Source: Nitrospirales bacterium
Lineage (GTDB): Bacteria; Nitrospirota; Nitrospiria; Nitrospirales; UBA8639
Direction: 5' to 3'
Length of the DNA: 64,000 nt
Assembly: GCA_965223295.1 (NCBI GenBank)
Contig: CBDCWC010000002.1
Span: 32,001 to 96,000 of the forward strand
Part shown: one piece after another, positions 25,784 through 50,000 of the stretch
Numbering within the stretch: the stretch's first letter is position 1
How the letters are laid out: the number at the start of each line of letters is the position of its first letter
Made by a program: the position numbers and the translations under genes
The notes under the pieces: generated by a model
What the model saw: only the letters and a program-made list of their open reading frames with translations
What the model was told of the DNA's origin: nothing
The model's database searches: none

Positions 25784-27007
25784 CTACGCGACAAGGGGAG
25801 AGAAATGATTTGCCCAATCAATGGCATCCAGATAAAAATCACGGATAGTCGACGGTTCAAGTCTGAGAGACTTGAGTTCCAACCACTTGCCAGATTCATA
25901 GGCTTTGACAGAAGAAAGCACTAACCCCATATCTCCTGTTCCCTCGACTAAGGCATCCGCAATATCCTCAGGTAATGGAAGTTTTTCAAGAATGTGTTCC
26001 ATGGGTGAGTTGTACAAGGTTTCTAAAACTGAAAGCAGGCCCATTGTGAAATATTTTTCTGGTGCCACGGATCCTAATTTTTCTCCCAACCGTTCGCACA
26101 TTTTAGCTCGTACGAGCGCAATGACTAATATTTCATGAGCTTGAGCCTGACCGCTGGCCATGATGATGAGTGTGGCCCATGTTCGAATACGATCGATGCC
26201 AACCATACAGGCAGCATGGTCAATCGATTCGACTCGTCTGGGAAGCCCGACGTACGCAGAATTGACATATCGCAAGACTTTATAGCTGAGAGAGAGATCG
26301 TTGCGAATATGTTGTACGAGTCCTTTAAACGGAATGTGGGGGTCCTGAATTTTCCCCAGTAACTCTAAGAGAGCCACACGGTTTGCGGGAATCTCTCGCC
26401 CCCGAATCACGTCTGGACGAAAAAAGAAATACCCTTGAAAATAGTAGAACCCTAGCTTTTTGCAAGTCTCATAGTCTTCAACCGTCTCTACTTTTTCAGC
26501 GAGGAGACGGACACGTGACTCTCCTATGTGGGACACTTCTCGTTGCAATTGACTTTCGGTTTTTCCCAAGACATCGATTTTGACAATATCGGCGAACTCT
26601 AGAAATAGGCGCGATCGATCATTAAAGACAAAATCGTCCAGCGCAATGGTATAACCTTGCTGTGAAAGTCCTTCAAGTGTTTCAAGGACCTGGGGAGTGG
26701 GTTCCACATTTTCTAGGATTTCGAGCACGACACGATTTTTAGGAAGTGCCTCACAAAAATGTTCCAAGAGAAATTGCTTGGGAATATTGAGGAATGCTAA
26801 ATGAGATCCCACGACATGTTCCAGCCCAATATCTAAATAAGTGTTGAGAAGAACCGTGGCTGTTGCCACGCTCTCATCCTTATAGATAGCCTGACCGATC
26901 TCGCAATTGCGGTAGAGCACCTCGTACCCAATGGTCTTTAACGTTGGCCCGAGAATGGGCTGACGTCCGACAAACACATCTCCATATTGGGCGAGTGCGT
27001 TTTTCAT
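25784..27007 (-). CDS. EAL-HDOD domain protein (YuxH/PdeH-like c-di-GMP phosphodiesterase)
   Basis: RQPI...YEVLYR, LEILE, ALDDF, KID, AEKVE, FQGYFF; HDOD part D..LSYKVLRYVNSA, RAKMCE, GLLS. Confidence 0.92.
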   Translation of the reverse strand: MKNALAQYGDVFVGRQPILGPTLKTIGYEVLYRNCEIGQAIYKDESVATATVLLNTYLDIGLEHVVGSHLAFLNIPKQFLLEHFCEALPKNRVVLEILENVEPTPQVLETLEGLSQQGYTIALDDFVFNDRSRLFLEFADIVKIDVLGKTESQLQREVSHIGESRVRLLAEKVETVEDYETCKKLGFYYFQGYFFFRPDVIRGREIPANRVALLELLGKIQDPHIPFKGLVQHIRNDLSLSYKVLRYVNSAYVGLPRRVESIDHAACMVGIDRIRTWATLIIMASGQAQAHEILVIALVRAKMCERLGEKLGSVAPEKYFTMGLLSVLETLYNSPMEHILEKLPLPEDIADALVEGTGDMGLVLSSVKAYESGKWLELKSLRLEPSTIRDFYLDAIDWANHFSPLVA

Positions 27008-27360
27008 GCTTTGTTCAATCGCCTCTCTTTATTGGGCGCAAGGGTCCGTGATGGAAGCGCAGACATACCTGTATCTATTTTCGGCCAACAAAACCAAACA
27101 ATTGAGATTTGCAGAAAAATGACTAAAATGAAGACAAGCGGCTTTAAGCAGGCATGGCCTATTTTTCATCGTTGCTTATTGATTCGTTCCTGCAGCGCGA
27201 GTTTTCGTCGGTCGTACGAGATACGATTGAGAAAAAATTTTCTTGTGCTGTTGATTAGTGCCTGTTGTTGTCGGTTGTACGACATAAGGGAGGATGGGAT
27301 CGCCACGATCGTGAAGAGTAGTGCCTACTAGAGAGAAAGATCTCCTCCAAGGAAGGCAGC

Positions 27361-29193: not shown

Positions 29194-29409
29194 CTGTCTC
29201 TCGTTCTAGTTCAATCGACGTACTGGTTGCTAAAATGAGCGGATTCGACTTTCTTTCCTAAATGCTGCTGGCTATAAAATGCCATAGTGCTGAACTAACC
29301 TATTGACACACTTGGACTATCTCTAAATTTCTCGGCTACTTTGAGAGTAATCCTAAGAGATTCTCAGTACTTTTCTGAAATTTGAAATTTATGAGGGAAG
29401 TGGTGTCGG

Positions 29410-31943: not shown

Positions 31944-34900
31944 TCAGCGGGACTGTCGTGGTAAACCAGTCTTCCTTTCTGGAGGTTCGGGAGTGGCAGC
32001 TGGTTTTTCAAACATGGTTTCGAGCGAATCTTCTTTGGAGAGGTCCTGATTCTTCGTCCCTTTCTTTCTTCGTTTTCTTGCCGGAGCGTCTAAAATTAAC
32101 AAGGGATTCACAAACTGCCAGGCTGGAACCGTCGACAAGAGAGCCGTGAGAAGGACGCCGCTTCGAAGGAGCCAGATAATATACCCGACGGAAAGTCCGG
32201 TAGAGGCCGCGAGGCTCGAGACCACATACATTTGTTCCGTTTCGGATATCGTATTGAGAGTGTCACGTGCTTGGTCAAGGCTGTTGAGCAATCCGGAAGA
32301 GGGGTTCAGCAAGGCTTGAACCTCATGTTTGAAATCGATAGTTTCAAATGGCAGTTGTAAGAGACTCAAGAGTTCATTGGCGGTGGCCCCCCGGCCTATC
32401 CTGCCGTCGAGAGCTTGGAGCGTTTCGGCATCATTCCCTTGAGATGTGTTGAACGAATCTGGGCCCTTCTGGTTGTCTTCGGAGAGGTTTGAGCCATGAC
32501 TGGAACCAAATCCCTGGGACTCAGTCACAAAAAACTCTCCACTTCCTGGTAATTCTTCCTGTGTATCTCCTTCGTCAGGCGGCGGTGGAGATTCAGGTGA
32601 TGGATCCGGAGGAGGCGGCAGAACAACAAGTGGCAGATCGGTGACTGTGACGGCAATGGTCTGTGTATCGGTTAAGGTCCCATCAGAGGTTTGCACGATC
32701 ACGTCATAGACGTTGTTGGCCCCTACGTCCGTTGGAGCTTGTAGGTCTGGAGCCGTGATGAAGGTCAGCGCGCCAGTGGTGGAGTCTATGCTGAATTGGG
32801 CGGCATCAGCCCCGCCGATAATGCTATAGGTTAGTGGCGTGCCTTCGGGATCTGTGGCTGAGACATTGGTGACAGCGGTGTTGCCAGCTAAGACAGTGGC
32901 GGTGGCGGTGGCACCGCCTCCATTTGACGTAATGCGGGGTGCATCGTTTTGAGGGGTAATGGTGAGATTCACCATTGCGCCGTTCGATACGGTCCCGGCA
33001 AAGTCCTGGATGGTATAGGTAAAACTGTCCGTCAGGGTCTCCGAACCGTTATGGGTATAGACCACGGTTCCATCAGTGTTGATCTGGGTGATTGTGCCGT
33101 TTGTTGGCCCGGAAACGATGGTGATGCTGGTCAAATCGAGGCCGTCGTCGGCATCCGAATCATTGCCCGCCACATTCAATGTGGCAGAGGCCCCTTCGTT
33201 AACGGTGAACGTGTCGGAAACCGCGGTGGGTGAGGTGTTCGTGGCCGTGACAAGAAGTGTGGTGCGGGCCGCGGCACTGTCAGCCGAGCCATCGTTGACG
33301 GTGACATCAATCAGCCGGTTTCCACCGGTGGGTGTGTTGGTGTCTGTGTGTTGATACTGAATGGCTTGGATCAAGGTTTCAGCTTGGGCTTCGGTGAAGA
33401 CGCCGGCGCTTTGTCTGGTAATCGTGAGGGTCGCGGTTCCGGCACCAGTGGCCACGGCGACGTGATAATTGCCTCCTGAGGTATTTTGACTGGCAACTGC
33501 TGTGCCCAAAGCAAATGTATCGCCGTCGAGAATCAATATTTCGGCATTACCATCCTGGATTCCGCTGATAGTAAGCATGACATTAGCGAAGGAGCCGCTA
33601 TCCACATCAGTGACGGTGGCATCGCTGTCAACGATGGCTACAGGCGCTCCACCTTCGGTAAACGTAGTTTGATAGCCGGTTCCGGTCGCACCAGAACTGT
33701 CATCGGCATCCAGGTCGAGCGTGGGCAGATTGTTTACGGAATTAATGGTGACAGTAATGGATCCTGTCGTGTCTAATGCGCCACCGCTGCCTTGGGCGCC
33801 GGTATTTCCGTCGTTAAAGGTGAAATCGATTTGGACGCTGACGGGCGGGTTGCTGCTGGCGTTGGCGTAGGTCAGGCGGTTTAAGAGTTGATCTACCAAG
33901 GTTGAGGTGGCATTTCCGTTAAACGTGATGACCAGCGTCCCGCCACTATTGGTGGTGGCGGTCCCGATGGTGGTGCCGCCTAACACAATGGAGCTGCCTT
34001 CCATGAGCGATCCTGTAACGCCAGCTGCGCTGAAGCGGTCATCCGCATTGGCGCCGCCATTGCGCGCAAGCGTCAATGTGGCGCCGTTATAGTTGTTAGC
34101 CACATCCAATTCAGGATCAGCGATGGTGGCGTTGGAGTCCAGGACTACGGCTATGCTGCCTTCGGTAAAGACAGGGGTGGCATCAAGGCCGCTAAAAGAT
34201 GGGGGTTCATTGACGGGGTTTACGTTGATCGTGGATCGGGCGGTTGTGCTGCTTAATGCTCCATCGCTGACCTGTACGTCTATGAAGCGATTGCCATCGG
34301 TGGGCGTGCTCGTATTGGTATGTTGGTACTGAATGGTTTGGATCAGCGTTTCGGTTTGAGCCAGGGTCCAGGTGCCTCCTCCGGCTTTCGTGATGGTGAC
34401 GTTGGCGGTTCCGGTTCCGGTGGTGATGACGACATGGTAAAGCCCCCCAGAGGTATTCTGCCCCGCCTCAGCCGTGGCTAGAGCAAAGGTACTTCCATCC
34501 AGCTCTAGGATTTCTGCGTTGCCGTCCAGAAGCCCGATGATTGCCAATGTTACGGATGTAAAGGCCGTGCTGTCAGGATCGGATAGCACGGCATCTGTAT
34601 CGGCAATGGATACCAAGCTTCCGCCTTCTGTGAACGTAAGTTGATAATCGATGCCGCTAGCGCCCGAACTGTCATCGGCATCCAGGTCTAATGTCGGGCC
34701 ATTGGATGCCACGTATTCGTAAGAGCCGATATCCACGTTCGCATCGCGGGTGGTGCTGCGTTGGTCAACAGCAGGCGCGCCGATGGAGTTGCCTGCGTTA
34801 ATAGCAGGGCTTCCGGCCAACAACGCATGGGTGAGCGTGGCTCCGCCGTTATTGGCCAACACACTCAACAATGGGTCCACGTTGTTCTGGTCCGAGGGAT

Positions 34901-36620
34901 CGCCTAACAAGGCTGTGCCATCACTGTCGATGTTGTTGCCCAGAGAGGTCAGGGCTACATTGGAATTACCTCCAACGTGATTCACCAAAATGGTGTTTTT
35001 CAGGCTGATTGATCCACTGCCGGCTAGGTTAATGCCATCATTGCCGGCATTCGAGGCAATCGTGGAGTTGGTGAGTGTCGTCGTGCCTCGGTTAAAAATG
35101 GCTCCGCCGTTTCCCACCGCACTGTTGCCGCTGACTGTGGTATTCAGCACTGTGGTGGTTGCTCCGCCCTGTATGGCCAATCCACCGCCCGTGTTGGCGC
35201 TGTTGTTCACAATGGCCACGCGATCCATAATTGCTGTGCCCAAAACGATTACCCCGCCGCCGCTGCCTGTGGTGGTATTGTCCCGCACAATGGCGTCTTG
35301 TAGCGTGAGCGTGTTGCTTGGGCCGACCCAGAGTCCTCCACCTCCCAACAGACCCGTTTCTCCGTTCTGAGCGGTGAGCCTGGAGATGGTAGCAGTGTTA
35401 CTGTGGACGGCGAATATCCGGTCCGGTGTGCTGCCAAGCCCGGAAGCATCAATGATGGTGGTTGTGGCGGAATCGCCAACAATAGTGACATCTTGTAGTA
35501 TGTCTAAGTCGCCGAAAGTGGCATCTGGCGCAAGTTCGTTGCTGGCGCCGATTGAGAGGGTATAGGTTCCAGCACTCAGGACGATTGTGTCTCCGCCTGA
35601 ACCGGCATTGGCTTGCAGAACGGCTTCGCGTAGCGACGTGACGCCATCACCAGCATCGATGACATCGGCAAAGGTCGTCACGTTGATGGTGGCTAGTTTG
35701 CCAATCCACTCTTCTTGCGTGGAGCTATCGATCACGACGTGCGAGTCAATCGTTCCGGTTTGATATTCCAGATCCCAGTTAGCGCCGTACTGCAGGCTGC
35801 CGGTGTTGTCGGTACTGGCGGCCAGGTCGGCGCCGGTAAGTTTGGCCAATAACCTGGCGGCAGCGCTCCCCGCATCGCCTTGTCCAAAGTCACAGCCGTA
35901 GATAAGAAGGTCTGCGTCTTCCGTTAAGGCTTGATGAATCGTGGCTAGTTCATCGGCGTAGGCATCTTGCATGGACATCATGTTGAGCACTCCTGTTCCC
36001 AGTTGCAATTCGCCTTGATTGCCATGAGAAATGACATGAATTGCGTCGATGCCAGACCGGTCTTTCAAGATTTCAGCCATTTGTTCGATGCCGTCTCTGG
36101 TCGGATCTAAAAGAATCACATCGGCATTAGGATCAATGCCTTCCATGAGTGTCTGATAGTCATTGATATTGGTATCGATGAATACAACTTCCTGTCGACT
36201 AGTGGGCGCTGCAACTGTGGATAGCGCTGACTGAAGATTAATGCTGTCCGTGAATGGATTTGAACGAGATTCAGATTCGGGTGGTGTACTGATTTCTTGA
36301 AGGTTGCGATCTTGAGTGATCTGATCCTGAATCACTTCCACCCCGGTGAGAAGGGCCGCCCCGTCAAACATAATTCTTGGCTCCAGAGGCAGCAGTAAAC
36401 CAATGCTTTGAAACGGTTGGTGCTCATTGGAAGGTCGGTAGGGATGTTTCTTTCTGTGTGAGGCACCTTGATTGAATCCTTGCCCCAGAATCGTGTGCGT
36501 GATTTTTGGGAGAAATCGCTGGACCCAATTCTTGCGTAGTGTAGGGGGGACAAGGTGGGATAGACCTGTATCCCTCTTGCTGTGTGTGCGTCTCATCACA
36601 TCCATTAGTTCCAAGAACAT
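31944..36620 (-). CDS. Large surface protein A: LEPR motif, DUF4347, SLREA beta-helix/choice-of-anchor-Q-like region, Ig/cadherin repeats, Pro linker, C-terminal hydrophobic motif
   Basis: [17 protein letters not shown]...SHG...LLIYGCD...LAASTDNTG...[45 protein letters not shown] repeats; GGAGG RBS before ATG 36620 (ORF open to 36695). Confidence 0.9.
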
Positions 36621-36904
36621 AGTATTCCTCCATCTCTCTTTTCGGGAACTTGGATGACGATCTGGAAAATCTTTTGAGAGAACTTTTCCGAACACTGCCA
36701 GTTCTGAGAAATTCTTTCTAATTAATGGATATTACAGAAAGAACTGAAGGGACAGAAGAACGAATAAGTGAAAGTATTCAATATCAAGGAAATATGAACC
36801 GAAAGATTGAACTGGAATCTTATACTTAGGAACTGAGGGTTTTGTGGGGAGAGCTGCTTCTCGGCCTTTCTGAATAAAGACGCATAGGATCTGTTGCAAG
36901 ATAA

Positions 36905-38479
36905 ATGATGAAAGACAATTGTAAGGCTTTGGCAATGGCATCAACATCTATTCATCGATGGATGTGTCTAATGGTGAGTAGTTTCATGTGTGTTGTGGGA
37001 GGCTGTGCGATCGTTCCTGAACCTCTCACTTCCGAAGAGTTAGAACAGCGTGTTCAAAATGATCTCCAGAATCTCAGTGGGTATCAGGAGCCTGTTGCTC
37101 GCCCCATAACCTTGTATGATGCTATGGCTCGGGCATTGAAGTTTAATTTGGAAGCCCGTGTCCAAGGGTTGAAGGAAATGGTAGCGCATCGGCAATTGGA
37201 TCTCGCACATTATGATATGTTACCAAAATTGGTTGCGGATGGGGCCTATAACGGACGTTCAAATTTTGCTGGTGCGCGAAGCCGCTCTTTGCTCTCAGGG
37301 CAAACATCTTTAGAGCCGTCTACCTCGTCAGATAAGGATTTGTTTACGGCGAATCTCACCTTAAGCTGGGATGTTTTAGATTTTGGCTTGTCATATGTCC
37401 GAGCGCAACAAGCATCGAATGATGTGTTGATAGCGGAAGAAGATAAACGACGCATTGCCAATCGTGTCATTCAAGAAGTCCGTTCGGCTTTTTGGAAAGC
37501 TGTCGGGGCGGAACGAGCCCTTGGGCGTCTATCCTTTTTAGACGATTGGGTGACGAAAGCCATTCAAGAGACCCGGGTGATTCGAGCCAGGGCCTTGGAG
37601 GCACCGCTGACCTCTCTCCAATATGAACGAGAACTCCTACAGGCTCAACAAGAAATACAGCAGCTGTATCAAGAACTTTCGGTGGCCAGAATTCAACTTG
37701 GGGAACTCATGAATTTGCAGCCTGGAGAGCCGTATGAACTGGTGAAACCTAAGCGGACGCCACCAGTCTCAAAGGTTAGGGACAATCTGGAGAAGTTGGA
37801 ACAACAAGCTTTACTTAATCGTCCTGAGTTGCGCACGGTGGACTATCAGAAACGTATTAATGCCAAAGAAACTAAGGTGGCCATTTTAGAACTGTTGCCA
37901 AGTCTCAATGTCTACCTTGGAGAAAATTATGATAGTAATTCGTTTCTATTTCATGATAATTGGCTGAGTTATGGAGCAAAAATCAGCTGGAATCTTATGA
38001 ATGTTTTCAGACATCCAACTCGGTTGCAAGTCATTGATGCTCAGGACGAAGTGCTGAATGCACAAAGTTTGGCGCTGACGATGACGATCATGACACAAGT
38101 GCATGTGGCCGTTGCCCAGTACGAGGCTGCCTTAAGGGAAGTCAAAATCGCTCAGCGGTATTTCGCGACGCAACTGAAAATAGCCACTCATGTTCAGCGG
38201 GCTTGGTCCTTGAATCGGCTGAGTGAACATCGTGTGATTCGAGAAAAGGTTCAAGGGTTGTTAGCCGAATTGCGGCATGAAATGGCGTTAGCCAAGTTAG
38301 AGATGGCTTATGCCAATCTATTAGCAGCCATAGGCGAAGATCCTTTCCCTGCGAAATTATCTGATGACGATTTGGACGAATTGGCCGATGCGTTGGAGCA
38401 ACGCTGGGAATTGTTAGAGCAGCATGCCATGGTTTCACCTGTGAATATGGAACAACCAGAAGGAGTGTTACAGCCATGA
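36905..38479 (+). CDS. TolC-family outer membrane channel (lipoprotein)
   Basis: VGGC lipobox; AMARALKFNL, LSWDVLDFG, ALLNRPELR, LLPSL outer-membrane efflux repeats. Exact start uncertain. Confidence 0.9.
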   Translation: MMKDNCKALAMASTSIHRWMCLMVSSFMCVVGGCAIVPEPLTSEELEQRVQNDLQNLSGYQEPVARPITLYDAMARALKFNLEARVQGLKEMVAHRQLDLAHYDMLPKLVADGAYNGRSNFAGARSRSLLSGQTSLEPSTSSDKDLFTANLTLSWDVLDFGLSYVRAQQASNDVLIAEEDKRRIANRVIQEVRSAFWKAVGAERALGRLSFLDDWVTKAIQETRVIRARALEAPLTSLQYERELLQAQQEIQQLYQELSVARIQLGELMNLQPGEPYELVKPKRTPPVSKVRDNLEKLEQQALLNRPELRTVDYQKRINAKETKVAILELLPSLNVYLGENYDSNSFLFHDNWLSYGAKISWNLMNVFRHPTRLQVIDAQDEVLNAQSLALTMTIMTQVHVAVAQYEAALREVKIAQRYFATQLKIATHVQRAWSLNRLSEHRVIREKVQGLLAELRHEMALAKLEMAYANLLAAIGEDPFPAKLSDDDLDELADALEQRWELLEQHAMVSPVNMEQPEGVLQP

Positions 38480-39315
38480 AATCAAAAATTTCAATCACCG
38501 TAATATGTGTGGCGGGCCTCATGGTGGGAAGTGGAGACAACAGTCTTGCGAAAAAAGGAAGCCTTCAATCTGCCAATCTGAATGCTGTTCGTGGAATAGT
38601 CAAGCCCACTCAAGAAGCCGTCATTTCTAGTGAATTACAAGCCCGAGTCAAACAAATCCCTTTTCGGGACGGGCAACGGTTTAAAAAAGGAGACCTACTT
38701 ATTGAATTTGACTGTTCGAAATACTTGGCAGAACTAGCGGCGGCCAAAGCTGAATTCGAGGCACGGGAAAAAACGGCTATCAATAATAAGGAGTTAGCCA
38801 AACTCCATGGCATAGCTCAGCTAGAAGTTGATATCTCTCGGGCAGAGGTCAAACAGGCCAAAGCGGCTGTGAGAAGTGCCAATTTGGCCGTCAGACATTG
38901 CCGAATTACGGCCCCATTTTCGGGACGGATAGTGAAAACGCTCGTTCATCCTTATGAAAGTGTGAATCCTTATGATGAAGTGATGAGTGTGTTAAATGAT
39001 CAGAATTTCGAAATTGAATTGATTCTACCGTCCACGTCTCTGCGGTGGGTGGCGAAAACCAGCCCATTTAAATTTTTTATTGATGAAACCCAAGAAGTCT
39101 ATGCTGCTGAAGTCGTCGATATTGGGGCTCGTGTGGATCCCGTGAGTCAAACCATTCGTATCTTTGGTCAGTTTAGGAAGCAACCGAAGCAGGTGTTGGC
39201 GGGCATGAGCGGGAGTGCCAGATTTACCGATCGAAAGCTTATATCTCAAAACAAGAAATCAACCTTCAATCCCAGTACATCGCCGAGTCCTTCAGCCAAA
39301 ACAGCAAAAAAGTAA
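38476..39315 (+). CDS. Periplasmic adaptor (HlyD/MFP-like), short
   Basis: Signal peptide; FKKGDLLIEFDC, CRITAPFSG, RVDPVSQT, LAGMSG; overlaps the upstream stop. Confidence 0.88.
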   Translation: MKSKISITVICVAGLMVGSGDNSLAKKGSLQSANLNAVRGIVKPTQEAVISSELQARVKQIPFRDGQRFKKGDLLIEFDCSKYLAELAAAKAEFEAREKTAINNKELAKLHGIAQLEVDISRAEVKQAKAAVRSANLAVRHCRITAPFSGRIVKTLVHPYESVNPYDEVMSVLNDQNFEIELILPSTSLRWVAKTSPFKFFIDETQEVYAAEVVDIGARVDPVSQTIRIFGQFRKQPKQVLAGMSGSARFTDRKLISQNKKSTFNPSTSPSPSAKTAKK

Positions 39316-39379
39316 GTCGCTTTGACATTATGTACAGGCTTGACCATTTCCAGCGTATAGAGTTGTCGGTCTTCAACGC

Positions 39380-40843
39380 ATGAGCCAGAATTTTCGAGAC
39401 ACATGCCAGTCTTCTGTTGGTGCGGGGGTGATGGAGCCTCCAGCACCCACTCAAGCTTCATCAGCGTCAACAAGTGGGCAATCTTCGGCACCGCCGGACA
39501 AGGGTTCTGACATTGATCCTCAATTGCTGTTGGCCCTTCTGCAATTAGAAAGTCAGGTCCGTGCTGCGCAAACTGTCAAAGAGTTATGTTTTCTCTTAGC
39601 CAATGAAACTCGCCGTCTTATTGGGTTTCGGCAGGCCTGTGTATTTTCCTTTGGCACGAATTTACGCCAGGCTTGCCAAGTTGAGGTGGTGTCGAGTGTG
39701 GCGATTGTGGATCGAAAATCTCCTATGGTGCAGTGGATGGAAGAAGTTGTGTCCGACCTCTGGGGTCGGCAGGCGTTGCAAGCCCCATGTCATTTGAATG
39801 TCGAGCAATGTGCCAAGCATCTTCAAGCCGATTGGAGACGGTTTGCCTTTCCACATGTGTTGTGGTGTCCCATTGTTTGGAATAGCCAACAAGTGATGGG
39901 AGGGGTCTGGCTGGCACGGGAACGTCCCTGGCAAGAAGGTGAAATTCAATTGATTCGGCGATTTGCCGAAACGGCAGCCCATGCCTGGAATGCTTTAGGG
40001 AAAACCAAGACTTCTGTTAAAAATTGGACATTGTCTCAACGTTGGTTATGGGTTGTGTTGGTCCTGATGGTTGGAGTGATGTGTGTGCCGATTCGGCTAT
40101 CAACCTTGGCTCCGGTTGAAGTGGTAGCTCATGAACCAGCCGTGGTGACAGCTCCGCTCGATGGAGTCATTGCTGAAATTTTCGTTGAACCCAATACCGT
40201 GGTGACAGAAGGACAGGCACTGTACCGCTTTGAAGACACGAAATTTCGTAACGACTATGAAGTCGCTGAGAAAAACTTAGCAGTAGGGTTTATGGAATAT
40301 CGAAAAATGACTCAGGGTGCATTTGTCGATGATGAAACAGGTGCAGGGATGCCTGTGCAAGCTTCTGAAGTGCGGTTGAAAGAAACCGAACGGGACTATG
40401 CCTGGGAAATCTTACAGCAAGTGGAGGTGAAAGCCCCAAGGGGAGGCATTGTCCTGTTCAATGATAAATCCGACTGGATCGGGAAGCCTGTGGTAATTGG
40501 AGAACGGATCATGGAAGTGGCAAATCCGAAAGAATATGAATTAAAAATTGATCTACCTGTGGAAGATGCGATTGTCTTGCGGGAGGGGGCCGAGGTTGAG
40601 GTTTTTTTAAATGCAGATCCCTTGGGAGCGATTCCTGCCAGTTTGTCCCATGCCAGTTACCATGCCGAAGTGTTGCCCGATAATGTGTTGGCCTATCGAG
40701 TGAAAGCCAAGGTTACTGAGCCACCAGAATCCATTCGGATCGGGTGGCAAGGTACGGCTAAGATTTATGGTGAACGTGTATCGCTCTTTTTCTATTTGTT
40801 CCGACGACCGCTGTCCGTCTTTCGCCAAACCGTAGGCTGGTAA
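39380..40843 (+). CDS. Membrane fusion protein with N-terminal GAF-like cytoplasmic domain
   Basis: N-terminal alpha/beta domain (LANETRRLIGFRQA...GGVWLARERPW..GEIQLI), one TM, then VTAPLDGVI, VKAPRGG and IRIGWQGTAKI adaptor motifs. Alternative start 39431. Confidence 0.85.
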   Translation: MSQNFRDTCQSSVGAGVMEPPAPTQASSASTSGQSSAPPDKGSDIDPQLLLALLQLESQVRAAQTVKELCFLLANETRRLIGFRQACVFSFGTNLRQACQVEVVSSVAIVDRKSPMVQWMEEVVSDLWGRQALQAPCHLNVEQCAKHLQADWRRFAFPHVLWCPIVWNSQQVMGGVWLARERPWQEGEIQLIRRFAETAAHAWNALGKTKTSVKNWTLSQRWLWVVLVLMVGVMCVPIRLSTLAPVEVVAHEPAVVTAPLDGVIAEIFVEPNTVVTEGQALYRFEDTKFRNDYEVAEKNLAVGFMEYRKMTQGAFVDDETGAGMPVQASEVRLKETERDYAWEILQQVEVKAPRGGIVLFNDKSDWIGKPVVIGERIMEVANPKEYELKIDLPVEDAIVLREGAEVEVFLNADPLGAIPASLSHASYHAEVLPDNVLAYRVKAKVTEPPESIRIGWQGTAKIYGERVSLFFYLFRRPLSVFRQTVGW

Positions 40844-42972
40844 TGTCTCCGGCGTCTCCACAAGAAGATATTGCCCTTCCCCCATTACGAGATGATCTAC
40901 AAATCCTGTCTGGCACTCCTACGGCAGAAGGAGTGCCCACTTGGAATATTTTGGATCCCGTCCGGCATCAATACTTTCAAATAGGCTGGGCGGCATTTCA
41001 ACTTCTTTCCCAATGGCATCTGGGGTCAGCAAACAAGCTTATCGAGGTGGTCTCGAGCTCTACGACAGCCAAGGTGTCACAACGGGATGTCATGGAACTG
41101 CTACAGTTTCTCTATCGGCACAATCTCACCAGAGAGGCACCCATGGGAGGCAGCAAAGGCCTCTATGCCCAAGCCGAGCAAAGCAAGCAACATTGGCTCC
41201 TGAAACTTCTCCATAGCTATCTCTTTTTTAGAATTCCGTTGTTCAATCCCGATCGGTTCCTGCAACGAACGTCGCCCATTGTCGCTCCCCTCTATACGAA
41301 AGCAGCCTTGATCCTGATTGTGCTTTTGGGGGTGGTGGGATGCGTGGGGATTGTGCGGCAATGGGAATCATTTGCGAATACGTTTTTGTATTTCTTTTCC
41401 CTGCAAGGGATGACGGCGTATGTGTTGGGATTGCTGGGGATCAAAATCTTGCATGAGTTAGGACATGCCTATACGGCTGCCCGGTATGGCTGCCGGGTCC
41501 AGACTATGGGTGTGGGCTTTCTCATAATGGTGCCGGTCCTCTATACGGATACCACGGATTCTTGGAAATTGACATCCCGTTGGCAGCGTGCTGTGATCGC
41601 TGCAGCAGGGACAGTTGTTGAGTTGGGTATCGCTATGCTTGCTACGTTTGCATGGCATCTGTGCCCGGAAGGAGTCACAAAAAGTGTGCTCTTTGTGTTG
41701 GCCACCACGAGCTGGATCATGGGTTTGTTCATCAATCTGAATCCGCTGCTTCGCTTTGATGGGTATTACGTGTTGTCGGATTGGTTAGGGGTTCCCAATC
41801 TTCAATCACGAGCCTTTGCGTTTGGACAATGGAAGTTACGAGAATGGTTATTTGGCTGGGGGGATGCGCCTCCTGAGGAACTACCCGCTACGCGCCAGCG
41901 AATCTTGATAGGCTATGCTTGGGCGACGTGGGTCTATCGGGCGTTCATGTTTTTGGGTATTGCGGTGTTGGTCTATTATTTCTTTTTCAAAGTCTTGGGC
42001 ATTATTTTGTTTTTAGTGGAAATCGGATGGTTCCTGGCATGGCCGGTCTATCAAGAAATGCACGTGTGGTGGAAGCGACGTGATGAAGTGGCGCGTTCAT
42101 GGCGTGGGAGAGTGGTTGGTGCCCTTGTTATGCTGACGATGGTTGTAGGATTCCTCCCTCTAGATCGGATGGTGTCGATTCCAGCGGTCCTGGAGGCACG
42201 GGAGCGAGCCACAGTGTTTTCACCTGTTCCCGCCAAAATTGTCGACGTGCAAGTGAATGAAGGCGATCGAGTTCAAGAAGGCGATGCATTGATGGTGTTG
42301 GAGTCGCCCGTAACTGAGCAAAACATTCTGATGCTCGAACAACGGATCACGGCGTTACACGTGCGTTTGCAACGGGAAGCAGCGTTCCAAGAAGACCGAG
42401 ATGATCATCAAGTCTTGTGGGAACATCTTCAAGGAGAACTGAAAGAACTGGAAGGCTTGCTGAAAATTCGTGCCCAGTTAGTCCTACGGGCACCGTTTGC
42501 TGGATTGGTCACTGATACGACCTCTTCGCTGCATGAAGGCCGATGGGTTAAAGCTGAGCTTCCTCTCATGCATCTCATCAAACCAGAAGGAATGGTTGTT
42601 CAGGCGTATGCGACAGAAGAACAACATGCTCGAATTGGCTCACAGAGCGAGGGGTGGTTTTATGCGGACGACCCAGCTTTGCCTGCTCGACGGAGTCGCA
42701 TACAGGATCTTCAGGAAGTGGATGAATCACATTTTTCTCTGTCCTATTTGGCTTCGCTGTATTCAGGCCCTGTGCCCGTCCGCCAAGATGAGCAGGGCAA
42801 TCTCAAGCCCGAGACTTCTATCTATCGCGTTCTCTTGGATGTCGACGATGGAGGTGGTCACTGGCCTCAAGCCGTGCGAGGAATCGTCCAGGTTCAAGCA
42901 GAATCCCAGAGTGCTTGGGGACAACTCTGGGAACATGTCGCAGCGGTCTTTATCCGAGAAAGTGGGATGTGA
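40843..42972 (+). CDS. Fusion of PqqD/RRE-like domain, site-2 (M50) zinc protease and periplasmic adaptor
   Basis: LHELGH (HExxH) and NLNPLLRFDGY M50 motifs within a multi-TM region; C-terminal VNEGDRV and LRAPFAG adaptor motifs; N-terminal ILDPVRHQYFQIG...helical bundle. Confidence 0.88.
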   Translation: MSPASPQEDIALPPLRDDLQILSGTPTAEGVPTWNILDPVRHQYFQIGWAAFQLLSQWHLGSANKLIEVVSSSTTAKVSQRDVMELLQFLYRHNLTREAPMGGSKGLYAQAEQSKQHWLLKLLHSYLFFRIPLFNPDRFLQRTSPIVAPLYTKAALILIVLLGVVGCVGIVRQWESFANTFLYFFSLQGMTAYVLGLLGIKILHELGHAYTAARYGCRVQTMGVGFLIMVPVLYTDTTDSWKLTSRWQRAVIAAAGTVVELGIAMLATFAWHLCPEGVTKSVLFVLATTSWIMGLFINLNPLLRFDGYYVLSDWLGVPNLQSRAFAFGQWKLREWLFGWGDAPPEELPATRQRILIGYAWATWVYRAFMFLGIAVLVYYFFFKVLGIILFLVEIGWFLAWPVYQEMHVWWKRRDEVARSWRGRVVGALVMLTMVVGFLPLDRMVSIPAVLEARERATVFSPVPAKIVDVQVNEGDRVQEGDALMVLESPVTEQNILMLEQRITALHVRLQREAAFQEDRDDHQVLWEHLQGELKELEGLLKIRAQLVLRAPFAGLVTDTTSSLHEGRWVKAELPLMHLIKPEGMVVQAYATEEQHARIGSQSEGWFYADDPALPARRSRIQDLQEVDESHFSLSYLASLYSGPVPVRQDEQGNLKPETSIYRVLLDVDDGGGHWPQAVRGIVQVQAESQSAWGQLWEHVAAVFIRESGM

Positions 42973-43068
42973 AAAGTGGAAGAGTGGAAAGTGAACAGGG
43001 AGAAGCAAAACATTAGATATAGAGACGTTCCGATGGGGTGTCTTCTTTCTCGCTCCGTAACCGTTTCT

Positions 43069-43467
43069 TCATTTCAATAAGGTGAATTCAGAAGATTTGC
43101 TGGCCTGACGATCAAATGTCATTGTTGTGGTGCAATGCTTGCTGTGATTGATTCGACTCAAGAGATAATCTGCAAAATCTGCTGGATTGTTCCGATAATC
43201 CTCTAAGGCTTGCCAAACCACCTGTGGCTCGTCAACACGAAGTTGAGCCACGCGCAAAATTTGTTCAAGAGTTTTGATCAGGGTGTTCTTAGGCTGGTCA
43301 TAGCATCCTTCTAATACCCAAAGGGTTTCGCATAACACCAAATGATTGAGAAATCCTGGGTCGTCTTTTGTACAGGTTCCCTCGATTAGAACTGTCGCAG
43401 ATTTGGCTTGAGGAAGATCGTCCTGGACAAGGTATCGAACTAAAACGTTGGTATCAATCCCTATCAC
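43069..43467 (-). CDS. vapC: VapC PIN-domain toxin
   Basis: IDTNVLVRYL, E..WVL, DFAD, TFD. Confidence 0.92.
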   Translation of the reverse strand: MIGIDTNVLVRYLVQDDLPQAKSATVLIEGTCTKDDPGFLNHLVLCETLWVLEGCYDQPKNTLIKTLEQILRVAQLRVDEPQVVWQALEDYRNNPADFADYLLSRINHSKHCTTTMTFDRQASKSSEFTLLK

Positions 43468-43702
43468 CGCTTTTCCCTCGTTGTTTAATTACTGACCGCA
43501 TAGCTTCCAATGAAACTGATTGTTTGGGCCTTGGAATTAGGCCTTTCAAGGTCGTGACGTCTGAGGTCACCGGCCAGACAGTGACCTGTCCATTAGGCCC
43601 AAGCAAAAATTCGACTCGGTCCCCTGGTTGCAGCTGTAGCTGGTCTCGAATGACTTTTGGAAGGGTAATTTGCCCTTTACTCGTCAAGGTAGCAACAGAC
43701 AT
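43454..43702 (-). CDS. vapB: AbrB/MazE/SpoVT-family antitoxin
   Basis: TLTSKGQITLPKVIRDQLQLQPGDRVEF; overlaps the toxin start. Confidence 0.92.
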   Translation of the reverse strand: MSVATLTSKGQITLPKVIRDQLQLQPGDRVEFLLGPNGQVTVWPVTSDVTTLKGLIPRPKQSVSLEAMRSVIKQRGKSGDRD

Positions 43703-43727
43703 AAAAATCCTTTCTAATATTAATAAT

Positions 43728-43745
43728 CCTTACCATGCAGTAAGG
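43728..43745. promoter_or_regulatory. Possible antitoxin operator
   Basis: CCTTAC-N6-GTAAGG inverted repeat upstream of the antitoxin, next to TTGACC on the - strand (43751-43756). Confidence 0.45.
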
Positions 43746-44020
43746 GGAATGGTCAAGAAACTCGTGGACCTTTTATTTCATGAAAGTCTTAAAGTTTTTT
43801 ATAAATGCCAAAGCCGAGCAATACCTTTTCAGTCAAGAGAATCTCCAACAATGGTGAGTAATCTCAAAATAACTGGGCAACATATTCCTCTGATTCCGTC
43901 AAGAGATTCACTAAATGCCCGACAAGGAAATGAGGTCCCCTCGTTTGAGGGAGGAGAGGCTTCTACCCAATACACTGGGGAATAGTTCTCACCCTGATGA
44001 TATAGACAGGAAGCTGAACA

Positions 44021-47000
44021 ATGAAAAAGATGAATTGTAAGCCCGCCACATTGGAGTCGGCCCAAGAAAAGAAAAGTAGGCCGTCTAAGGCCGGGACCAC
44101 TAAAAAGAAAAAGAATCCACCCTTGGAAGAGTTCGAAGTGATAGAGCCATCTGGGGGAATCGGGACGCTGGTAGCTCTAGAGCCTCGTATCATGTTTGAT
44201 GGGGCAGCGGTCGCCACTGGAGCCGAGGTCATCCAAGACGCCATGACAACGGATCAAACTCCAATCCCCGGAAGTGATGGAGATATGCCTGCTGGTCAAG
44301 ATACTGCTCAAAACTCAGATGAGATCCTCTGGTCGTCTGGTCTTTCACTCTCGGCTCCCTCGGATCGTAAGGAAATTGTGTTCATAGATACGAGTGTGGA
44401 TGACTATCAAACACTTATGGCAGGCATCGATCCCAATGCGGAAGTTATTCTCTTAGACCCTACCCGTGATGGCATTGAACAAATCGCAGAGATTCTCGGG
44501 GATCGCTCGGATATTGATGCCATCCATCTCATTTCACATGGAGATCCAGGGGAGCTGCAACTCGGCACAGGGACACTTAACCTTGCGTCGATGCAAGGGG
44601 AGTATGCCGACGAACTAGCCATTATAAGCCAAGCCTTAACAGAAGAAGCGGATTTTCTCATCTACGGCTGTAATTTTGGAGAAGGCGAATCTGGCAGTAA
44701 TGCCGCCACTCTCCTAGCCGAACTGACCGGGGCGGATATCGCCGCTAGCATCGACCTCACAGGGGCCGAAGCGCTGGGCGGCGACTGGGATCTTGAAGTG
44801 CAAACCGGCTCTATTGAAACGGCCGTAATTATTGATGAGCAAGTGCAAGAGGACTTTGCTGGCGTTTTAGATATCACCACGGGGTTAGTTGGTAATTGGA
44901 CGTTTGATGCGGACGCCACTGATTCAAGCGGCAATAATTATGACGGAACCTTAACTGGTGATGCGTCAATTGATACCGCAGATGCCACAGATATTGTAGG
45001 AGAGGGCAAGCTTTCGCTGGATGGCAGCGGGGACTATGTTGATCTCTCGGCCCATGTAGCAACCTTCAATAGCTTTTCGGAAGGCACGATTACCGCCTGG
45101 GTGAGGACCACCGATTCCGGCGAGAGCGTCATTTTCGACATGACGGACAACGATGGCAGTGGCGAGGTGGCGAAGTTTGGCATAGAGGCCGGCGGGCAAC
45201 TGAAGTGGCTGACGTTCAATGACGTGGGTGGCTATGTGATTGCCTATAGTGATGCGACCGTCAATGATGGAAACTGGCATCATGTCGCAGTCACCGTCGG
45301 GGCAGGCGGCAATACCCTGTATATCGATGGCGCAGTGGTCAGTGTGACCTATTCTGGGGGAAGCAGCTCAGATTCCGACTTTCTCAGTGCGATTACCGGT
45401 GCCGATTCGGTGAGCATTGGCCGCTCGGAGTATACCGGGAGTACTGCCGACTACAGTGGATTGGTCGATAACGTACATTTGTACAATCGGGTCTTGAGTC
45501 TCGGAGATATCCAAGAACTCATGGCCGAGGCCCCAACCTCTTATGGCGAAATTGGGCACTGGACCTTTGATGCGGATGCAACGGATTCGAGCGGGAATAA
45601 CTACGATGGAACGCTGACCAATGGCGCCACCGTCGATACGACCGATACGACCGATCAGGTGGGTGTGGCCAAACTGTCGTTGGATGGGACGAATGATTAT
45701 GTTGATCTCTCTAGTCACGTATCCAATTTTAGTAGTCTCAATGAAGGCACCATTTCTGCTTGGGTCAACACCACCGGGACCTCCGAAACGATATTTTCAA
45801 TCTCTGATACGGCGGACGCCAATAGTTATGCCACCTTGTTTGTAGGGGTTTCCGGGTACCTCACGTTTGAAGTGTATGAAAATGGAACCCCATTGTTGGC
45901 GGTCTATAATGGGAATGGGGACACGATTAATGATGGGGCATGGCATCACGTGTCGATCTCAATGAGTGCGACAGGGCATAGTCTCTACATAGATGGACAA
46001 CTGATTGCACCAGGCGATCTGATCTATGATACAGGGTCATCAAGCACAAGTGCGTTCTTTAATGATGTTTCTGGCCTGGATGCCATGGCGATCGGACGCA
46101 TTGAAAACTCAAGTGGAGGACGATGGTATTCAAGCGGCTTGATTGATGATGTTCGTGTGCATAATCGAGCATTAAGCACGGCAGTTATTGATCAGTTAGC
46201 GCAAGAAGGGCCTGTTGCCAACGATGATACAGCGACGACTAGTGTAGACACTGCGGTAAATATTAATCTAACTGCAAACGACACTGATCTAGACAGCGAA
46301 ACCATCACGGTCCTTGATGTCAGCAATCCCACCAACGGCACGGTGGTGAATAATGAAGACGGCACCGTCACCTATACTCCCGATGGTGGTTATTCCGGGC
46401 CTGACAGCTTTACCTATCTTACGGCCGATCTGGATGACACGGTCAGCTATTGGCGGTTAGACGGCGATGCCACTGATGCGGTGGGGAGCAATGATGGGAC
46501 GATTACAGGCACGACCACCGTGGAAGGCCATTATGGGGATGCGCTGAGTTTCGATGAAGTCGATGACAAAGTGGTGATTTCTGATTTCGCGATCAATAAC
46601 GAGTTTTCCATCTCCTTTAAAATTAAAATCGATGATAACACGGGCTCGTTGTTTCAATATATCTACAGCCACGGGGATATCAATTCGACCAACAGCTTGA
46701 ATGTATTTCTGGTTGAGGCGTCTCATGGAGACCTTGCAGCCCAAAATAAATTGCGAACGGTCATTCGTGACACCAACGATACCCTCTTAAACACGGCTTT
46801 GGAATTTGATGCGAGTAGTATCATCGGGGATGGCAATTGGCACACCTACACCTTGACGGTGGCGGCAGGAGAAGGGGCCAAAGTCTATCTCGATGGGGTG
46901 CTGCAAAATACTGATGCGACGCGTGGAGGCGATGCCTTTGATCCTGGGACTAACCTCTATCTTGGAGCTAGGCAGGACCTCGATTCCAATCGGTTTTTCG

Positions 47001-50000
47001 GAGGAGCATTGGACAGTGTCCAAGTATTCAATCGTGCATTGAGTGCTTCTGAGGCCAATGAGACTCACACCGGCGGGAGTTCACTAGGGACTGTGAATGT
47101 TACAATTGATTCCAATGCCACACCGGTCAACACGGTGCCCGGGGCGCAGGCGGTGGCCGAAGATACTTCATTAGCGATCACCGGGATCTCGGTCAATGAT
47201 TCGGATGGAAATCTCTCCACGGTCCAACTCTCGGTCACCAATGGCACGTTGAGTGTCACCCTTTCCGGTTCTGCCGCGATTAGTGCAGGGGCTGACGGCA
47301 CCAATACATTGACTCTTTCTGGCACGCAAGCCGATATTAATGCGACTTTGGCCAGTCTCACCTATCAAGGCGATCTGAACTACACGGGCAGCGATACGCT
47401 GACGGTAACCAGCACTGACGCCAATAGCGCGACGGATGTCGATACCGTGGCAATCACGGTCAATGCGGTGAACGATGCGCCCACCGACTTATCAAGCGGC
47501 ATTGAGGTGAATACGGACGGTGGGAATGATGCCTACCTGATTGCCGACGATGGCGGTGCGATCTTGGGTGGCCTCTCGTCGGTGACCTTTGAGATCCAGT
47601 TTGCCACGGACGATACGAGTTCGTTTACGCCGCTTGTCTCCTACGCGACGGCGACGAATGACAACGAGTTCGCTTTTGTGTTCGCCGGAACTGATGCCTA
47701 TCTCTACATCGCAAACAACGACATTCTGCTCAATAGTATTGACTACACGAGTCTCAGGGATGGAACGCTGCAGCATCTGGCCGTCACCTGGGACAACACG
47801 AATGGGGATTGGGCAGTTTACAGCAACGGCGTGCTCATTGAGCAGGGCACGGGTCATGAGGTGGGCAATACCATTGAGGGCGGGGGTGAGCTGGTGTTCG
47901 GTAACGAACAGGATGCGCTGGGCGGTTCTTTTCAATCCAACCAGGCGTTCAAAGGCACCTACTACGACGTCCGCATCTGGAACGATGTGCGAACCGCCGG
48001 TGAGATTGCCCAGTATGATCAGCAGCAGCTCGCTCTGACACCGTCAGGAGCGGCAGCCATCGGCCTAGTGGCCAATTGGCAGATGGATGGTCTCGATGGT
48101 TCCAACCAGGTGGTCGATATCGTCAGTGGCAACAACCTGAGCATTGCGCATGCGAGTGGGACGGGATTCACTGCAGGAAACGTGGATTCACAACTGTCGA
48201 TCGATGAAAATAGTGCCAACGGCAGCCATGTTGGTTTTGTGACGACGCAAGACCCCGATGCTAGCGAAACGTTCAGCTATAGCCTCACTGATTCTGCTGG
48301 GGGACGGTTTGCCATCAATGCGTCCACGGGCGAGATCACGGTTGCCGATGGATCGCTGCTCGACTACGAATCGTCCACCTCCCACAGCGTTACCGTGCGG
48401 GTGACTGATTCCGGTGGGCTGACCTATGATGAGGTCCTTACGATTCAAATCAATGATCTCGACGAGGCGCCAGTCAACACGGTGCCGGGGGGGCAAACGA
48501 CCAATGAAGATACCACTCTCACCTTTAATACGACTAACAGTAATCTGATCTCCATTGCGGATGATGCTGGCGATACCTTGGTGGTCACCGTGTCAGTAAA
48601 TAACGGCACCGTGACATTGTCGGGCACGACCGGTCTGACTTTCACGGCTGGAGACGGGACGGCCGATGCCACGATGACCTTCTCCGGCACGGTGGAAGAC
48701 ATCAATGCCGCGCTGGATGGCCTGCAATACGACCCCACCACGGATTACTCCGGAAGCGATACGCTCACCATCACAAGCTACGATCAAACGCTCTACTCCT
48801 TGGATTTTGACGCCAACCTGCAAGGGTATTATCAGTTCGACAGCGCCGACCCTGGTAATGACAGCAGCCCAAGTGGGACGCTAGATGGCACGCTTAATGG
48901 CGACGCGACGGTGGTCACAGATGGAACAAGAGGGGATGTGCTATCTCTAGATGGTACCGGTGACTATGTGGAGATTGCCGGAACATTATCAAATCCCACC
49001 AACGTCACCCTTTCCGCTTGGGTGAAATATTCTTCCGCCCCGGCCAATGGGGGTGAAGTGATCTCTATCGGCAACGACATCGCGTTGCGAGTTGATGATT
49101 GGACACAGGGGGTAACGGGATTCTTCTGGGACGGGACCACTCATCAATTTGTTGGAAGCAATGTCAGTTTGGCCGATAACAGTTGGCACCATATTGCGTT
49201 TTCCTTCGATGATGGTGCGAACACTCAAAGTCTCTACATTGATGGGACTTTAGTTGCTTCGGGGAACTTTACCTCTTCCATTACCTATACTGGCTGGTTC
49301 CCTCAAACGACGATCGGAACCCACGCTGATTTGGGCGACTCTAGTTTTGACTTTAGTGGGTTGATCGATGACGCCCGAATCTATGATCGCGCCTTATCCG
49401 CCAGCGAAATTCAGGGATTGGCCTCCGCGCCGGTCACCGCCAGCGACACCGATACGGTGGCTATGATTGTGACTGCAGTGAACGATGCGCCGGTGAACAC
49501 GGTGCCAGGGGCGCAAGTGGTTCTTGAGGATTCCGCGTTGAACATCACGGGCATTTCCGTGAATGACGTGGACGGCAATCTGTCCACTGTCCAGCTGTCC
49601 GTCACGAACGGGACACTGAATGTGACTTTAAGTGGCGCGGCGACGATTAGTGCAGGGGCGAACGGAACGAACACTCTGACCTTGAGTGGGACCCAAACCG
49701 ACATCAATGCGACGTTAGCTAGCCTGACTTATCAGGGTGCTCTCAATTATGTCGGGGGTGATACATTGACCGTGCTCTCAACGGACAGCAATGCGGATAC
49801 TGATTCTGACATGGTCACCATCACCGTCAATCAAGATAATGATGCGCCGGTGGTCACCGCTAGCGGTGGGGTGACGAGTTATGCCGAACAAGCGACTGCC
49901 ACTGTGATTGATAGCGCGGTGACCTTAGTAGACCCCGATGGTTTTGATGGGACCGATCCGTCGGATCAGTATGTGGGTGTGGTTCAGATCACAGGGAATT

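Follow-up and report, generated by a model that had tools for sequence, protein, structure and literature searches.

A conserved TolC/adaptor gene cluster without a linked ABC pump, paired with giant leader-bearing proteins: a candidate leader-guided envelope machine in Nitrospirales

How might a cell deliver very large proteins through a TolC-type channel when the genes around that channel encode no pump? The question is raised by a four-gene cluster in a 64,000-nucleotide stretch of a Nitrospirales genome (contig CBDCWC010000002.1, positions 32,001 to 96,000; hereafter the window, numbered from its first letter), in which a TolC-type protein and three periplasmic adaptors, one of them fused to an M50 intramembrane metalloprotease, lie between two genes for giant adhesin-like proteins. 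To our knowledge, all described TolC-dependent protein exporters use an ATP-binding cassette (ABC) pump. Our computational analysis makes it fairly probable that the cluster encodes a dedicated envelope machine for the two giants that flank it, and the most likely function of this machine is leader-guided recognition and cleavage of the giant cargo, coupled to a TolC/adaptor duct. The locus presents a conserved TolC/adaptor machine that has no ABC pump and is paired with giants bearing a short invariant N-terminal tag; if the giants are exported by it, the machine would constitute an unstudied route for building bacterial surfaces and biofilms.

The cluster (36905-42972, + strand) comprises four co-directional open reading frames (ORFs) at 36905-38479, 38476-39315, 39380-40843 and 40843-42972, which meet in a 4-nt overlap, a 64-nt gap and a 1-nt overlap. 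The first encodes a 524-aa TolC-type outer-membrane factor (Pfam OEP, PF02321, 5.4e-32, 111.6 bits against a cut-off of 22), a probable lipoprotein in which we read by eye a VGGC lipobox near the N-terminus of the translation. The second encodes a short periplasmic adaptor of 279 aa (MFP1; HlyD_3 9.7e-12; TIGR01730 RND_mfp 2.3e-35, above its cut-off) with, on the same by-eye reading, a single N-terminal hydrophobic segment. The third product, a 487-aa adaptor (MFP2; GAF 3.4e-5 and HlyD_3 1.8e-14), appears to place a cytoplasmic GAF domain (residues 68-202) ahead of a hydrophobic segment (about residues 222-245) and a periplasmic HlyD part, again as read by eye, and the fourth is a 709-aa fusion (MFP3) that was delimited with Pfam and NCBIfam and has full-length orthologues in relatives. 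HlyD_3 scores above its cut-off in three of the four proteins. ORF layout and Pfam together bear out the original prediction, made from the letters alone, that four tightly linked genes form a system resembling type I secretion with three adaptors. The same prediction held that the cluster has no ATPase motif and that the M50 domain is its only polytopic inner-membrane part. Pfam and NCBIfam find no nucleoside triphosphatase domain in the four proteins, and the ABC family PF00005 has no match in the window; the second point agrees with hydrophobic segments read by eye, without a topology predictor. Sequence searches of the PDB with the 709-aa fusion and with the GAF adaptor returned no relative, and a promoter and terminator scan of 36400-44200 gave fewer sites than were obtained in shuffled sequence.

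The fusion is the component that distinguishes the cluster. Along its 709 residues, all on the + strand, it carries a winged-helix domain resembling a recognition element of pathways for peptides that are made on the ribosome and modified after translation, RiPPs (RiPP recognition element, RRE; residues 10-100, 40870-41142; AlphaFold2 model and structure matches), an M50 domain, and a HlyD-type periplasmic adaptor part (residues 443-641, 42169-42765; Biotin_lipoyl_2 4.5e-8, HlyD_3 8.9e-10). The match to Peptidase_M50 (PF02163, 3e-10, 40.2 bits against a gathering cut-off of 27.2) places the protein in that family. Its zinc-binding catalytic motif HELGH (residues 204-208, 41452-41466) and its second M50 signature NLNPLLRFDG (residues 298-307, 41734-41763) are intact in the translation, as originally read, and all 26 full-length homologues compared keep H204, E205, H208, N298, D306 and G307. 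Further, residues 36-394 match NF041824, the daptide intramembrane metalloprotease, over positions 20-358 of a 379-position profile (2.9e-47); the score of 161.6 bits against an equivalog cut-off of 300 marks the fusion as a homologue below the equivalog level. Because of this match, and because the sections of Ren et al. (2023) drawn on here present the NF041824 family of daptide pathways as a site-2 protease that is joined to an RRE and takes off the leader, the RRE-M50 unit belongs to a type of leader peptidase already known, and what is new is its fusion to an adaptor.

The N-terminal domain was modelled with AlphaFold2 from residues 1-142 aligned with 31 homologues from several phyla. Residues 10-100 have a predicted local distance difference test (pLDDT) value of about 95 and form three strands followed by three helices. 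When the model was compared by VIA-align with 48161 chains, the top three matches were stand-alone RREs, covering 81-85 residues: the lasso-peptide B1 RRE 6jx3_B (Z 9.6, root-mean-square deviation 2.9, 82 of 85 residues aligned), TbiB1 (5v1u_A, Z 9.2) and PqqD (5sxy, Z 8.2). Lower rows, at Z 5.0-7.1, include the RRE-bearing proteins TigE, ThcOx, CteB, MccB, TbtB, LynD, MibB, NisB and PbtF, and the many rows of RRE-bearing RiPP enzymes (Z 4.0-7.1) are interleaved with unrelated winged-helix proteins. An RRE fold for the N-terminal domain is therefore supported in silico by the model and its matches.

What would such a domain recognize? Candidate cargo is encoded on both sides of the cluster. 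Downstream, a 4188-aa ORF (44021-56587, + strand) begins with a leader and continues with DUF4347 (Pfam, 1.5e-59), LamG, cadherin and Big_9 repeats; its LEPR-type leader motif occupies residues 53-63 (44177-44209) and its DUF4347 domain, as delimited by Pfam (2.9e-57), residues 119-283 (44375-44869). Upstream and divergent from the exporter genes, a second candidate of 1583 aa (31944-36695, - strand) has the same leader motif (36354-36386, - strand), a DUF4347 domain (35700-36188, - strand), cadherin and Big_9 repeats, and a C-terminal PAWQFVNP (32103-32126, - strand). The motif lies about 55 residues ahead of DUF4347 in both giants. The linkage is exclusive: the whole genome holds exactly two DUF4347 matches, both in the genes flanking the cluster, and exactly two LEPR-type motifs among its 10599 six-frame ORFs, both in these giants. 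All 26 leaders compared, drawn from several phyla, share the leucine, glutamate, arginine and aspartate of the motif, and in SAR11 and Methylocystaceae loci the motif stands 9-11 residues past a methionine. The match of the leader to the NCBIfam family NF012209 (LEPR-XLL) is weak (13.5 bits, with the cut-off at 17). A double-glycine-type leader was considered and rejected, as the spacing of hydrophobic residues misfits the consensus, and the idea that the GAA of the leader imitates a LapG site was likewise set aside. Pfam finds no HemolysinCabind match in the giants of the window, where the conserved leader is N-terminal and the C-termini are also conserved.

The larger giant reads as three ORFs, 44021-56587, 56569-57672 and 57530-61027, of which the first bears the leader and the third the conserved C-terminal motif. 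The third, of 1165 aa (57530-61027, + strand), carries tandem Big_9 repeats (Pfam, NCBIfam) and is likely the C-terminal part of the same cargo. Because the first and third ORFs share a frame and the orthologue in a related genome (G012) is a single 4655-aa ORF with the same C-terminus in a by-eye alignment, 44021-61027 probably forms a single gene, about 5700 codons long, whose GC-rich tandem repeats contain two frame changes. These changes are either real or assembly errors, and the short-read contigs over 56300-57800 stop short of spanning the repeats. The C-terminal PAW motif likewise occurs only twice in the genome, in the 1583-aa protein and at the end of ORF 57530-61027, where a hydrophobic segment ends in PAWRQFDP and is followed by a charged tail (60719-60838, + strand). 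Across Nitrospirales the cargo C-terminus has this form, a hydrophobic stretch that leads into PAW(R/Q)xFDPxPxL and then a charged tail, and could be an anchor or a second recognition site; proteobacterial cargo ends in a non-hydrophobic motif of the type SF(S/T)xQL...LL, without a hydrophobic anchor.

The DUF4347 domain may itself be enzymatic. Its model (pLDDT 83) has an alpha/beta fold whose best match is Tce1 in the Hcp3-Tce1 complex (9qpe_G, Z 11.6, Foldseek E 1.9e-4), followed by a SAVED-CHAT protease (Z 8.4); at Z 5.7-6.7, matches to Csx29, C11 proteases, legumain, separase, caspases and a toxin cysteine-protease domain (CPD) are mixed with generic alpha/beta folds. A cysteine is invariant and a histidine nearly so, each at a strand end. 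According to the parts of the Tce1 paper drawn on here, the Tce1 domain is a putative cysteine protease with a His/Cys dyad, and Tce1 is a cargo of type VI secretion. On this modelling, DUF4347 probably has a clan-CD/CPD-like cysteine-protease fold, which suggests a self-processing cysteine protease close behind the leader.

Leader and fusion were then folded together, with fusion residues 1-420 and cargo residues 43-77 each given as an alignment of 26 sequences, in three runs and three controls. The ipSAE score was 0.66-0.67 in the three runs and 0.01 in the best of the three controls; of 80 solved complexes, 58 attain the same mark, as do 2 of 110 mismatched pairs. Contacts coincided between the runs to 81% or more, with a partner pLDDT of 56 or higher. 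The predicted interface sets RRE residues 43-51 and 77-93 and M50 residues 201, 204-205, 208, 232-241, 293-298 and 304-306 against cargo residues 45-61. Within it, cargo L50-L53 lies on strand 3 (residues 43-48) and helix 3 (residues 85, 89 and 93) of the RRE, and L53-R56 and the residues that follow contact the catalytic site of M50, where HELGH touches the leader and where residues 297-298 and 304-306, at the second signature, belong to the interface. In this prediction, the RRE binds the LEPR leader of the flanking giants and feeds it into the M50 active site, in line with the leader recognition originally proposed (0.67 against 0.01 for the best control). If correct, this would take the RRE beyond the small-peptide natural products from which it is known, to proteins thousands of residues long, and the leader/RRE pair and the HExxH site offer direct experimental handles.

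From these computed features we infer an order of events, a ring composition and a mode of regulation. The cytoplasmic RRE of the fusion would bind the N-terminal leader of the cargo (hydrophobic residues followed by the LEPR motif) as an added beta-strand and pass it to the adjoining M50 metalloprotease, which would clip it. A mixed ring, made up of the short adaptor, GAF-HlyD and the HlyD portion of the fusion, would dock the TolC-like lipoprotein, and the cargo would travel N-terminus first through this adaptor/TolC duct to the surface. The cytoplasmic GAF domain, together with enzymes of cyclic di-GMP (c-di-GMP) turnover encoded nearby, would probably gate the process.

The linkage of machine and giants recurs across phyla. 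The fusion is single-copy in this genome. All ten Nitrospirales loci compared (40-48 kb each) keep the order OEP, adaptor, GAF-adaptor, fusion, and in all ten an LE[PS]R/DUF4347 protein of 458 to 5115 aa adjoins the four genes. Among 1.84 billion cluster representatives, the first 420 residues of the fusion match 11627 proteins at E <= 1e-3, of which 2763 reach E <= 1e-30; the top 150 matches are mostly 700-725 aa long, and the full fusion is therefore the normal form. A scan of one genome per species found the system in at least 588 species loci, 80 of which, spanning Nitrospirota, Alpha-, Beta-, Gamma- and Zetaproteobacteria, Pelagibacteraceae, Scalindua and Desulfobacterota, were kept for detailed counts. 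These 80 include OEP in 58, a GAF adaptor in 74, at least three HlyD ORFs in 68 and all of these in 57; an ORF of at least 900 aa is present in 50, DUF4347 in 36 and the leader motif in 32. When at least 6 kb lies upstream of the fusion (59 loci), all four parts are found in 48 and a giant ORF or DUF4347 in 55. Loci lacking parts are largely short contigs, or have giants inserted between the channel gene and the adaptors. Ten giants are truncated by the edge of the locus, and for eight of them DUF4347 is found outside the locus, at the N-terminus of the same giant. Of the other two genomes, one has DUF4347 on a separate contig, and one, from Pseudomonas (G045, locus L083), has no DUF4347 match, yet its adjacent giant begins LALEQRMLFEAA, and we therefore take the leader as the constant feature and DUF4347 as optional.

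The pairing also holds within the phylum. Across a sample of 401 Nitrospirota genomes, 48 have an orthologue of the fusion (E <= 1e-90), 50 have DUF4347, 45 have both and 348 neither, and DUF4347 lies within about 6 kb of the orthologue on the same contig in 41 of the 48. One genome offers a separate observation: in G307, stop codons (TAA and TAG) break up the orthologue (C1:3041308-3042547) and DUF4347 is matched solely in a 393-aa ORF some 340 kb distant, which may reflect joint decay of machine and cargo. The system occurs from Nitrospirota and SAR11 to Pseudomonas, Azospirillum and Escherichia plasmids; on plasmid p2 of Azospirillum brasilense Sp7, the RefSeq annotation gives the same five genes, as a 'DUF4347 domain-containing protein', a 'TolC family protein' and three adaptor subunits.

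Several neighbours could regulate the system. Four signalling genes surround the locus (25784-31926, - strand, and 61680-63191, + strand), encoding EAL-HDOD, REC-GGDEF-EAL, hybrid histidine kinase and PAS-GGDEF proteins. As possible regulators we note the kinase (PAS-HisKA-HATPase-REC-Hpt; 29410-31926, - strand; Pfam), which also stands beside the cluster in G016, G012 and G018; the REC-GGDEF-EAL protein of c-di-GMP turnover (27361-29193, - strand; Pfam and synteny); and the PAS-GGDEF protein directly after the giant gene (61680-63191, + strand; Pfam). Other Nitrospirales have relatives of the kinase and of the EAL protein next to the cluster, and an ORF of 504-510 aa after the giant gene in G012, G018, G004, G009 and G014 shares 31-37% identity with the histidine-kinase query. 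Between exporter and giant gene lies a PIN-domain gene (43069-43467, - strand; Pfam 2.3e-6), overlapped by an 82-aa ORF upstream of it (43454-43702, - strand), and together they resemble a toxin-antitoxin pair of the VapBC type; in G018 this place is taken by a PIN gene of 65% identity. Genes upstream for fumarate reductase/succinate dehydrogenase subunits, citrate synthase and lipoyl synthase were rejected as members of the system on account of their metabolic roles.

What, then, would move the cargo across the inner membrane? None of the 46 PF00005 matches of the genome falls in the window, and the nearest (C2:116166-117524) is about 41 kb from the cluster. In the ten Nitrospirales loci, one ORF fits the ABC-signature pattern (87 aa, in G034b) and none has Walker A as well. 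The original prediction turned on homologous clusters not consistently including an ABC ATPase, and the survey agrees with it: an ABC gene lies inside the operon in none of the 80 loci. In 12 of the 80, a stop-to-stop ORF of 236-571 aa with an ABC domain comes within 10 kb (distances 2.2-10.4 kb), and the sole such ORF longer than 500 aa (L085) lies 2.9 kb off, beyond two opposite-strand genes. The RefSeq annotation of Azospirillum brasilense Sp7 plasmid p2 places no ABC gene within 14 kb of the system. Elsewhere in the genome of the window, at G000:C3:124759-129402, a 478-aa HlyD protein is encoded near a 571-aa ORF with a weak ABC match, the only candidate for a classical type I pair. An AAA ATPase (636 aa) with DUF6638, DUF2333 and two unknown genes lies downstream of the cluster in three of the 80 loci (L062:12326-19038, L057 and L065), all from alphaproteobacterial metagenome-assembled genomes, two labelled 'Rhizobiaceae' and one 'Pseudomonadota'; with three loci in 80, it was rejected as a general motor.

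One relative of the fusion is accompanied by a SecA-like ATPase. A distant paralogue (about 30% identity) is present at a different locus in 13 of the 401 Nitrospirota genomes, and this sister family of related Nitrospirota is the module of Kamneva et al. (2015). In one such genome (L033:14797-19046 and L034:1-8053, on contig C2 of G037), the gene order runs from a CARDB/Big_9 protein starting LEPLEGRILLAADL and a second Big_9 protein through GAF-HlyD, M50-HlyD and SecA-like genes to OEP, with cadherin/Big_9 cargo; the SecA-like protein has 663 aa (SecA_DEAD 2.2e-102). The abstract and sections 16-17 of Kamneva, Poudel and Ward (2015; PLoS One, PMC4452313) describe the module in silico and propose SecA_DEAD as its ATPase and the M50 helices as its pore. 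The genome of the window has a single SecA_DEAD match, on another contig (C3:93582-94769), and a SecA-like query has no match in any of the 80 loci; the window therefore represents a SecA-less variant.

Several of our results weigh against a dedicated leader-guided machine. The sequence-level case for the RRE is weak: a Foldseek search of the PDB with the N-terminal domain returned nothing at E <= 0.001 (its top rows are TbiB1, with E 0.015 and a TM-score of 0.65 on the target, then 6jx3, then CteB and PqqD), Pfam PqqD (PF05402) matches 2 of 32 N-terminal domains with a best E of 0.023, and the domain of the window matches no family at E <= 10. The RRE-like N-terminus that had been read by eye thus stands at the level of fold, by AlphaFold2 and VIA-align, and fails at the level of Pfam sequence families. 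Because RRE-leader complexes already have solved structures, part of the co-fold score may be a memory of the known binding mode. The linkage of machine and cargo has exceptions. At locus L106 the sole DUF4347 protein is on another contig; three of the 48 orthologue-bearing Nitrospirota genomes (G221, G260 and G367, all fragmented assemblies) have no DUF4347 match; and five Nitrospirota genomes have DUF4347 matches, two of them strong, but no orthologue. These Nitrospirota counts were cross-tabulated by hand and come from related genomes that are not independent samples. A second SecA-like gene lies directly beside the sister paralogue in five of five genomes tested, which argues that such machines use a motor. 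No known inner-membrane transporter or ATPase is linked to the cluster, which leaves the passage of 1583 to about 5700 residues across the inner membrane unexplained, and export of the giants could run through the possible HlyD and ABC pair at C3:124.7-129.4 kb. Power could come here from the one housekeeping SecA, from the proton-motive force or from a component that is not linked.

We know of no site-2 protease that conducts a protein, and the sister family keeps its SecA-like ATPase; both count against the reading in which the cluster is truly motor-less, with rings of M50 forming an inner-membrane pore driven by proton-motive force or by folding outside the cell, and no ATPase. This reading seems to us unlikely, although the window has no linked ABC, resistance-nodulation-division (RND), major facilitator superfamily (MFS), SecA-like or AAA gene, the operons of the 80 loci have none either, bar the downstream AAA gene in three, and the M50 helices had already been proposed as a pore (Kamneva et al. 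2015, PMC4452313, section 17). A housekeeping SecA or another unlinked motor is likelier than a truly motor-less pore. The original claim that the protease is a translocase replacing the motor finds no support here.

A bolder version of the preferred reading, that of a dedicated machine for the flanking giants, would make the cluster a distinct secretion pathway for giant surface proteins: a heteromeric ring of three adaptors, one of which bears the RRE and the site-2 protease, would itself act as the inner-membrane gate, cargo would pass N-terminus first after the LEPR motif is read and cut, no dedicated ATPase would take part, and the same protease would later cut the C-terminal anchor of Nitrospirales cargo in a release step under GAF and c-di-GMP control. 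We hold this full scheme to be rather doubtful.

The main rival is that the cluster encodes a device for processing, retention or release and no exporter, the giants crossing by another route such as an unlinked type I system. Here the M50 fusion would trim the leader or cut a C-terminal anchor by regulated intramembrane proteolysis, in the manner of LapG/LapD and under c-di-GMP/GAF control. The Nitrospirales cargo end, with its hydrophobic segment, PAWxxFDP and charged tail, is a plausible substrate for an intramembrane protease, four c-di-GMP or signalling genes flank the locus, and a candidate HlyD and ABC pair exists elsewhere in the genome. Set against this, conservation across phyla extends from the protease to a TolC-type channel and three adaptors, beyond the needs of a trimming enzyme, and proteobacterial cargo has no C-terminal hydrophobic anchor to cut. 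We consider a non-exporting device quite unlikely. Efflux or maturation of a small RiPP-like peptide or metabolite, with the giants as mere neighbours, is very improbable: it draws on the homology of the RRE-M50 module to the daptide leader peptidase, but that match, at 161.6, falls below the cut-off of 300, the leader motif is on the giants and nowhere else in this genome, and the giant linkage holds across phyla.

How does such a machine compare with known systems? Peptidase-containing ABC transporters, of bacteriocin-type type I secretion, carry a C39 cysteine protease on an ABC pump that works with a membrane fusion protein (MFP) and TolC, and they cleave an N-terminal double-glycine leader. 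As in these systems, an N-terminal leader would here be read and cut by a protease belonging to an MFP/TolC machine; unlike them, the protease is an intramembrane metalloprotease fused to an adaptor, there is no ABC pump and the cargo is giant. Lap systems (LapA-LapBCE, LapD/LapG) work with an ABC pump and a signal at the C-terminus, and their protease is a periplasmic cysteine protease. The resemblance lies in a giant repeat adhesin served by a TolC-type channel and adaptor, in c-di-GMP enzymes nearby and in a protease that would govern the adhesin, whereas the system of the window has no ABC pump, a conserved signal at the N-terminus and an intramembrane protease; no search for LapG or LapD was made. 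Measured against type I secretion, the cluster has the outer-membrane factor and the HlyD-type MFPs and no linked ABC gene with a nucleotide-binding domain.

The daptide proteins MpaP/DapP (NF041824) likewise join an N-terminal RRE to a site-2 protease, whose role there, as far as the source drawn on extends, is to remove the RRE-recognized leader. Unlike them, the module here is fused to HlyD inside a TolC/adaptor operon, and its predicted substrate has thousands of residues in place of a short peptide; no aminotransferase or methyltransferase was found among the Pfam-scanned ORFs of 13.5-63.2 kb. We found no literature linking an RRE, a LEPR leader or DUF4347 cargo to this machine, supplementary files lying outside the search. 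The abstract and sections 16-17 of Kamneva et al. are silent on all three, and their supplementary tables may list SecA-less loci. The locus with a secondary SecA_DEAD gene described in those sections is nonetheless the closest relative: both have GAF-HlyD, M50-HlyD, a further HlyD and OEP (often, in theirs), neither has an ABC gene, and the system of the window differs in having no linked SecA_DEAD gene. Because it has neither the linked ABC pump of type I secretion nor the SecA gene of the Kamneva module, we file this putatively leader-reading, protease-bearing TolC/adaptor system as a variant of a kind known only in silico.

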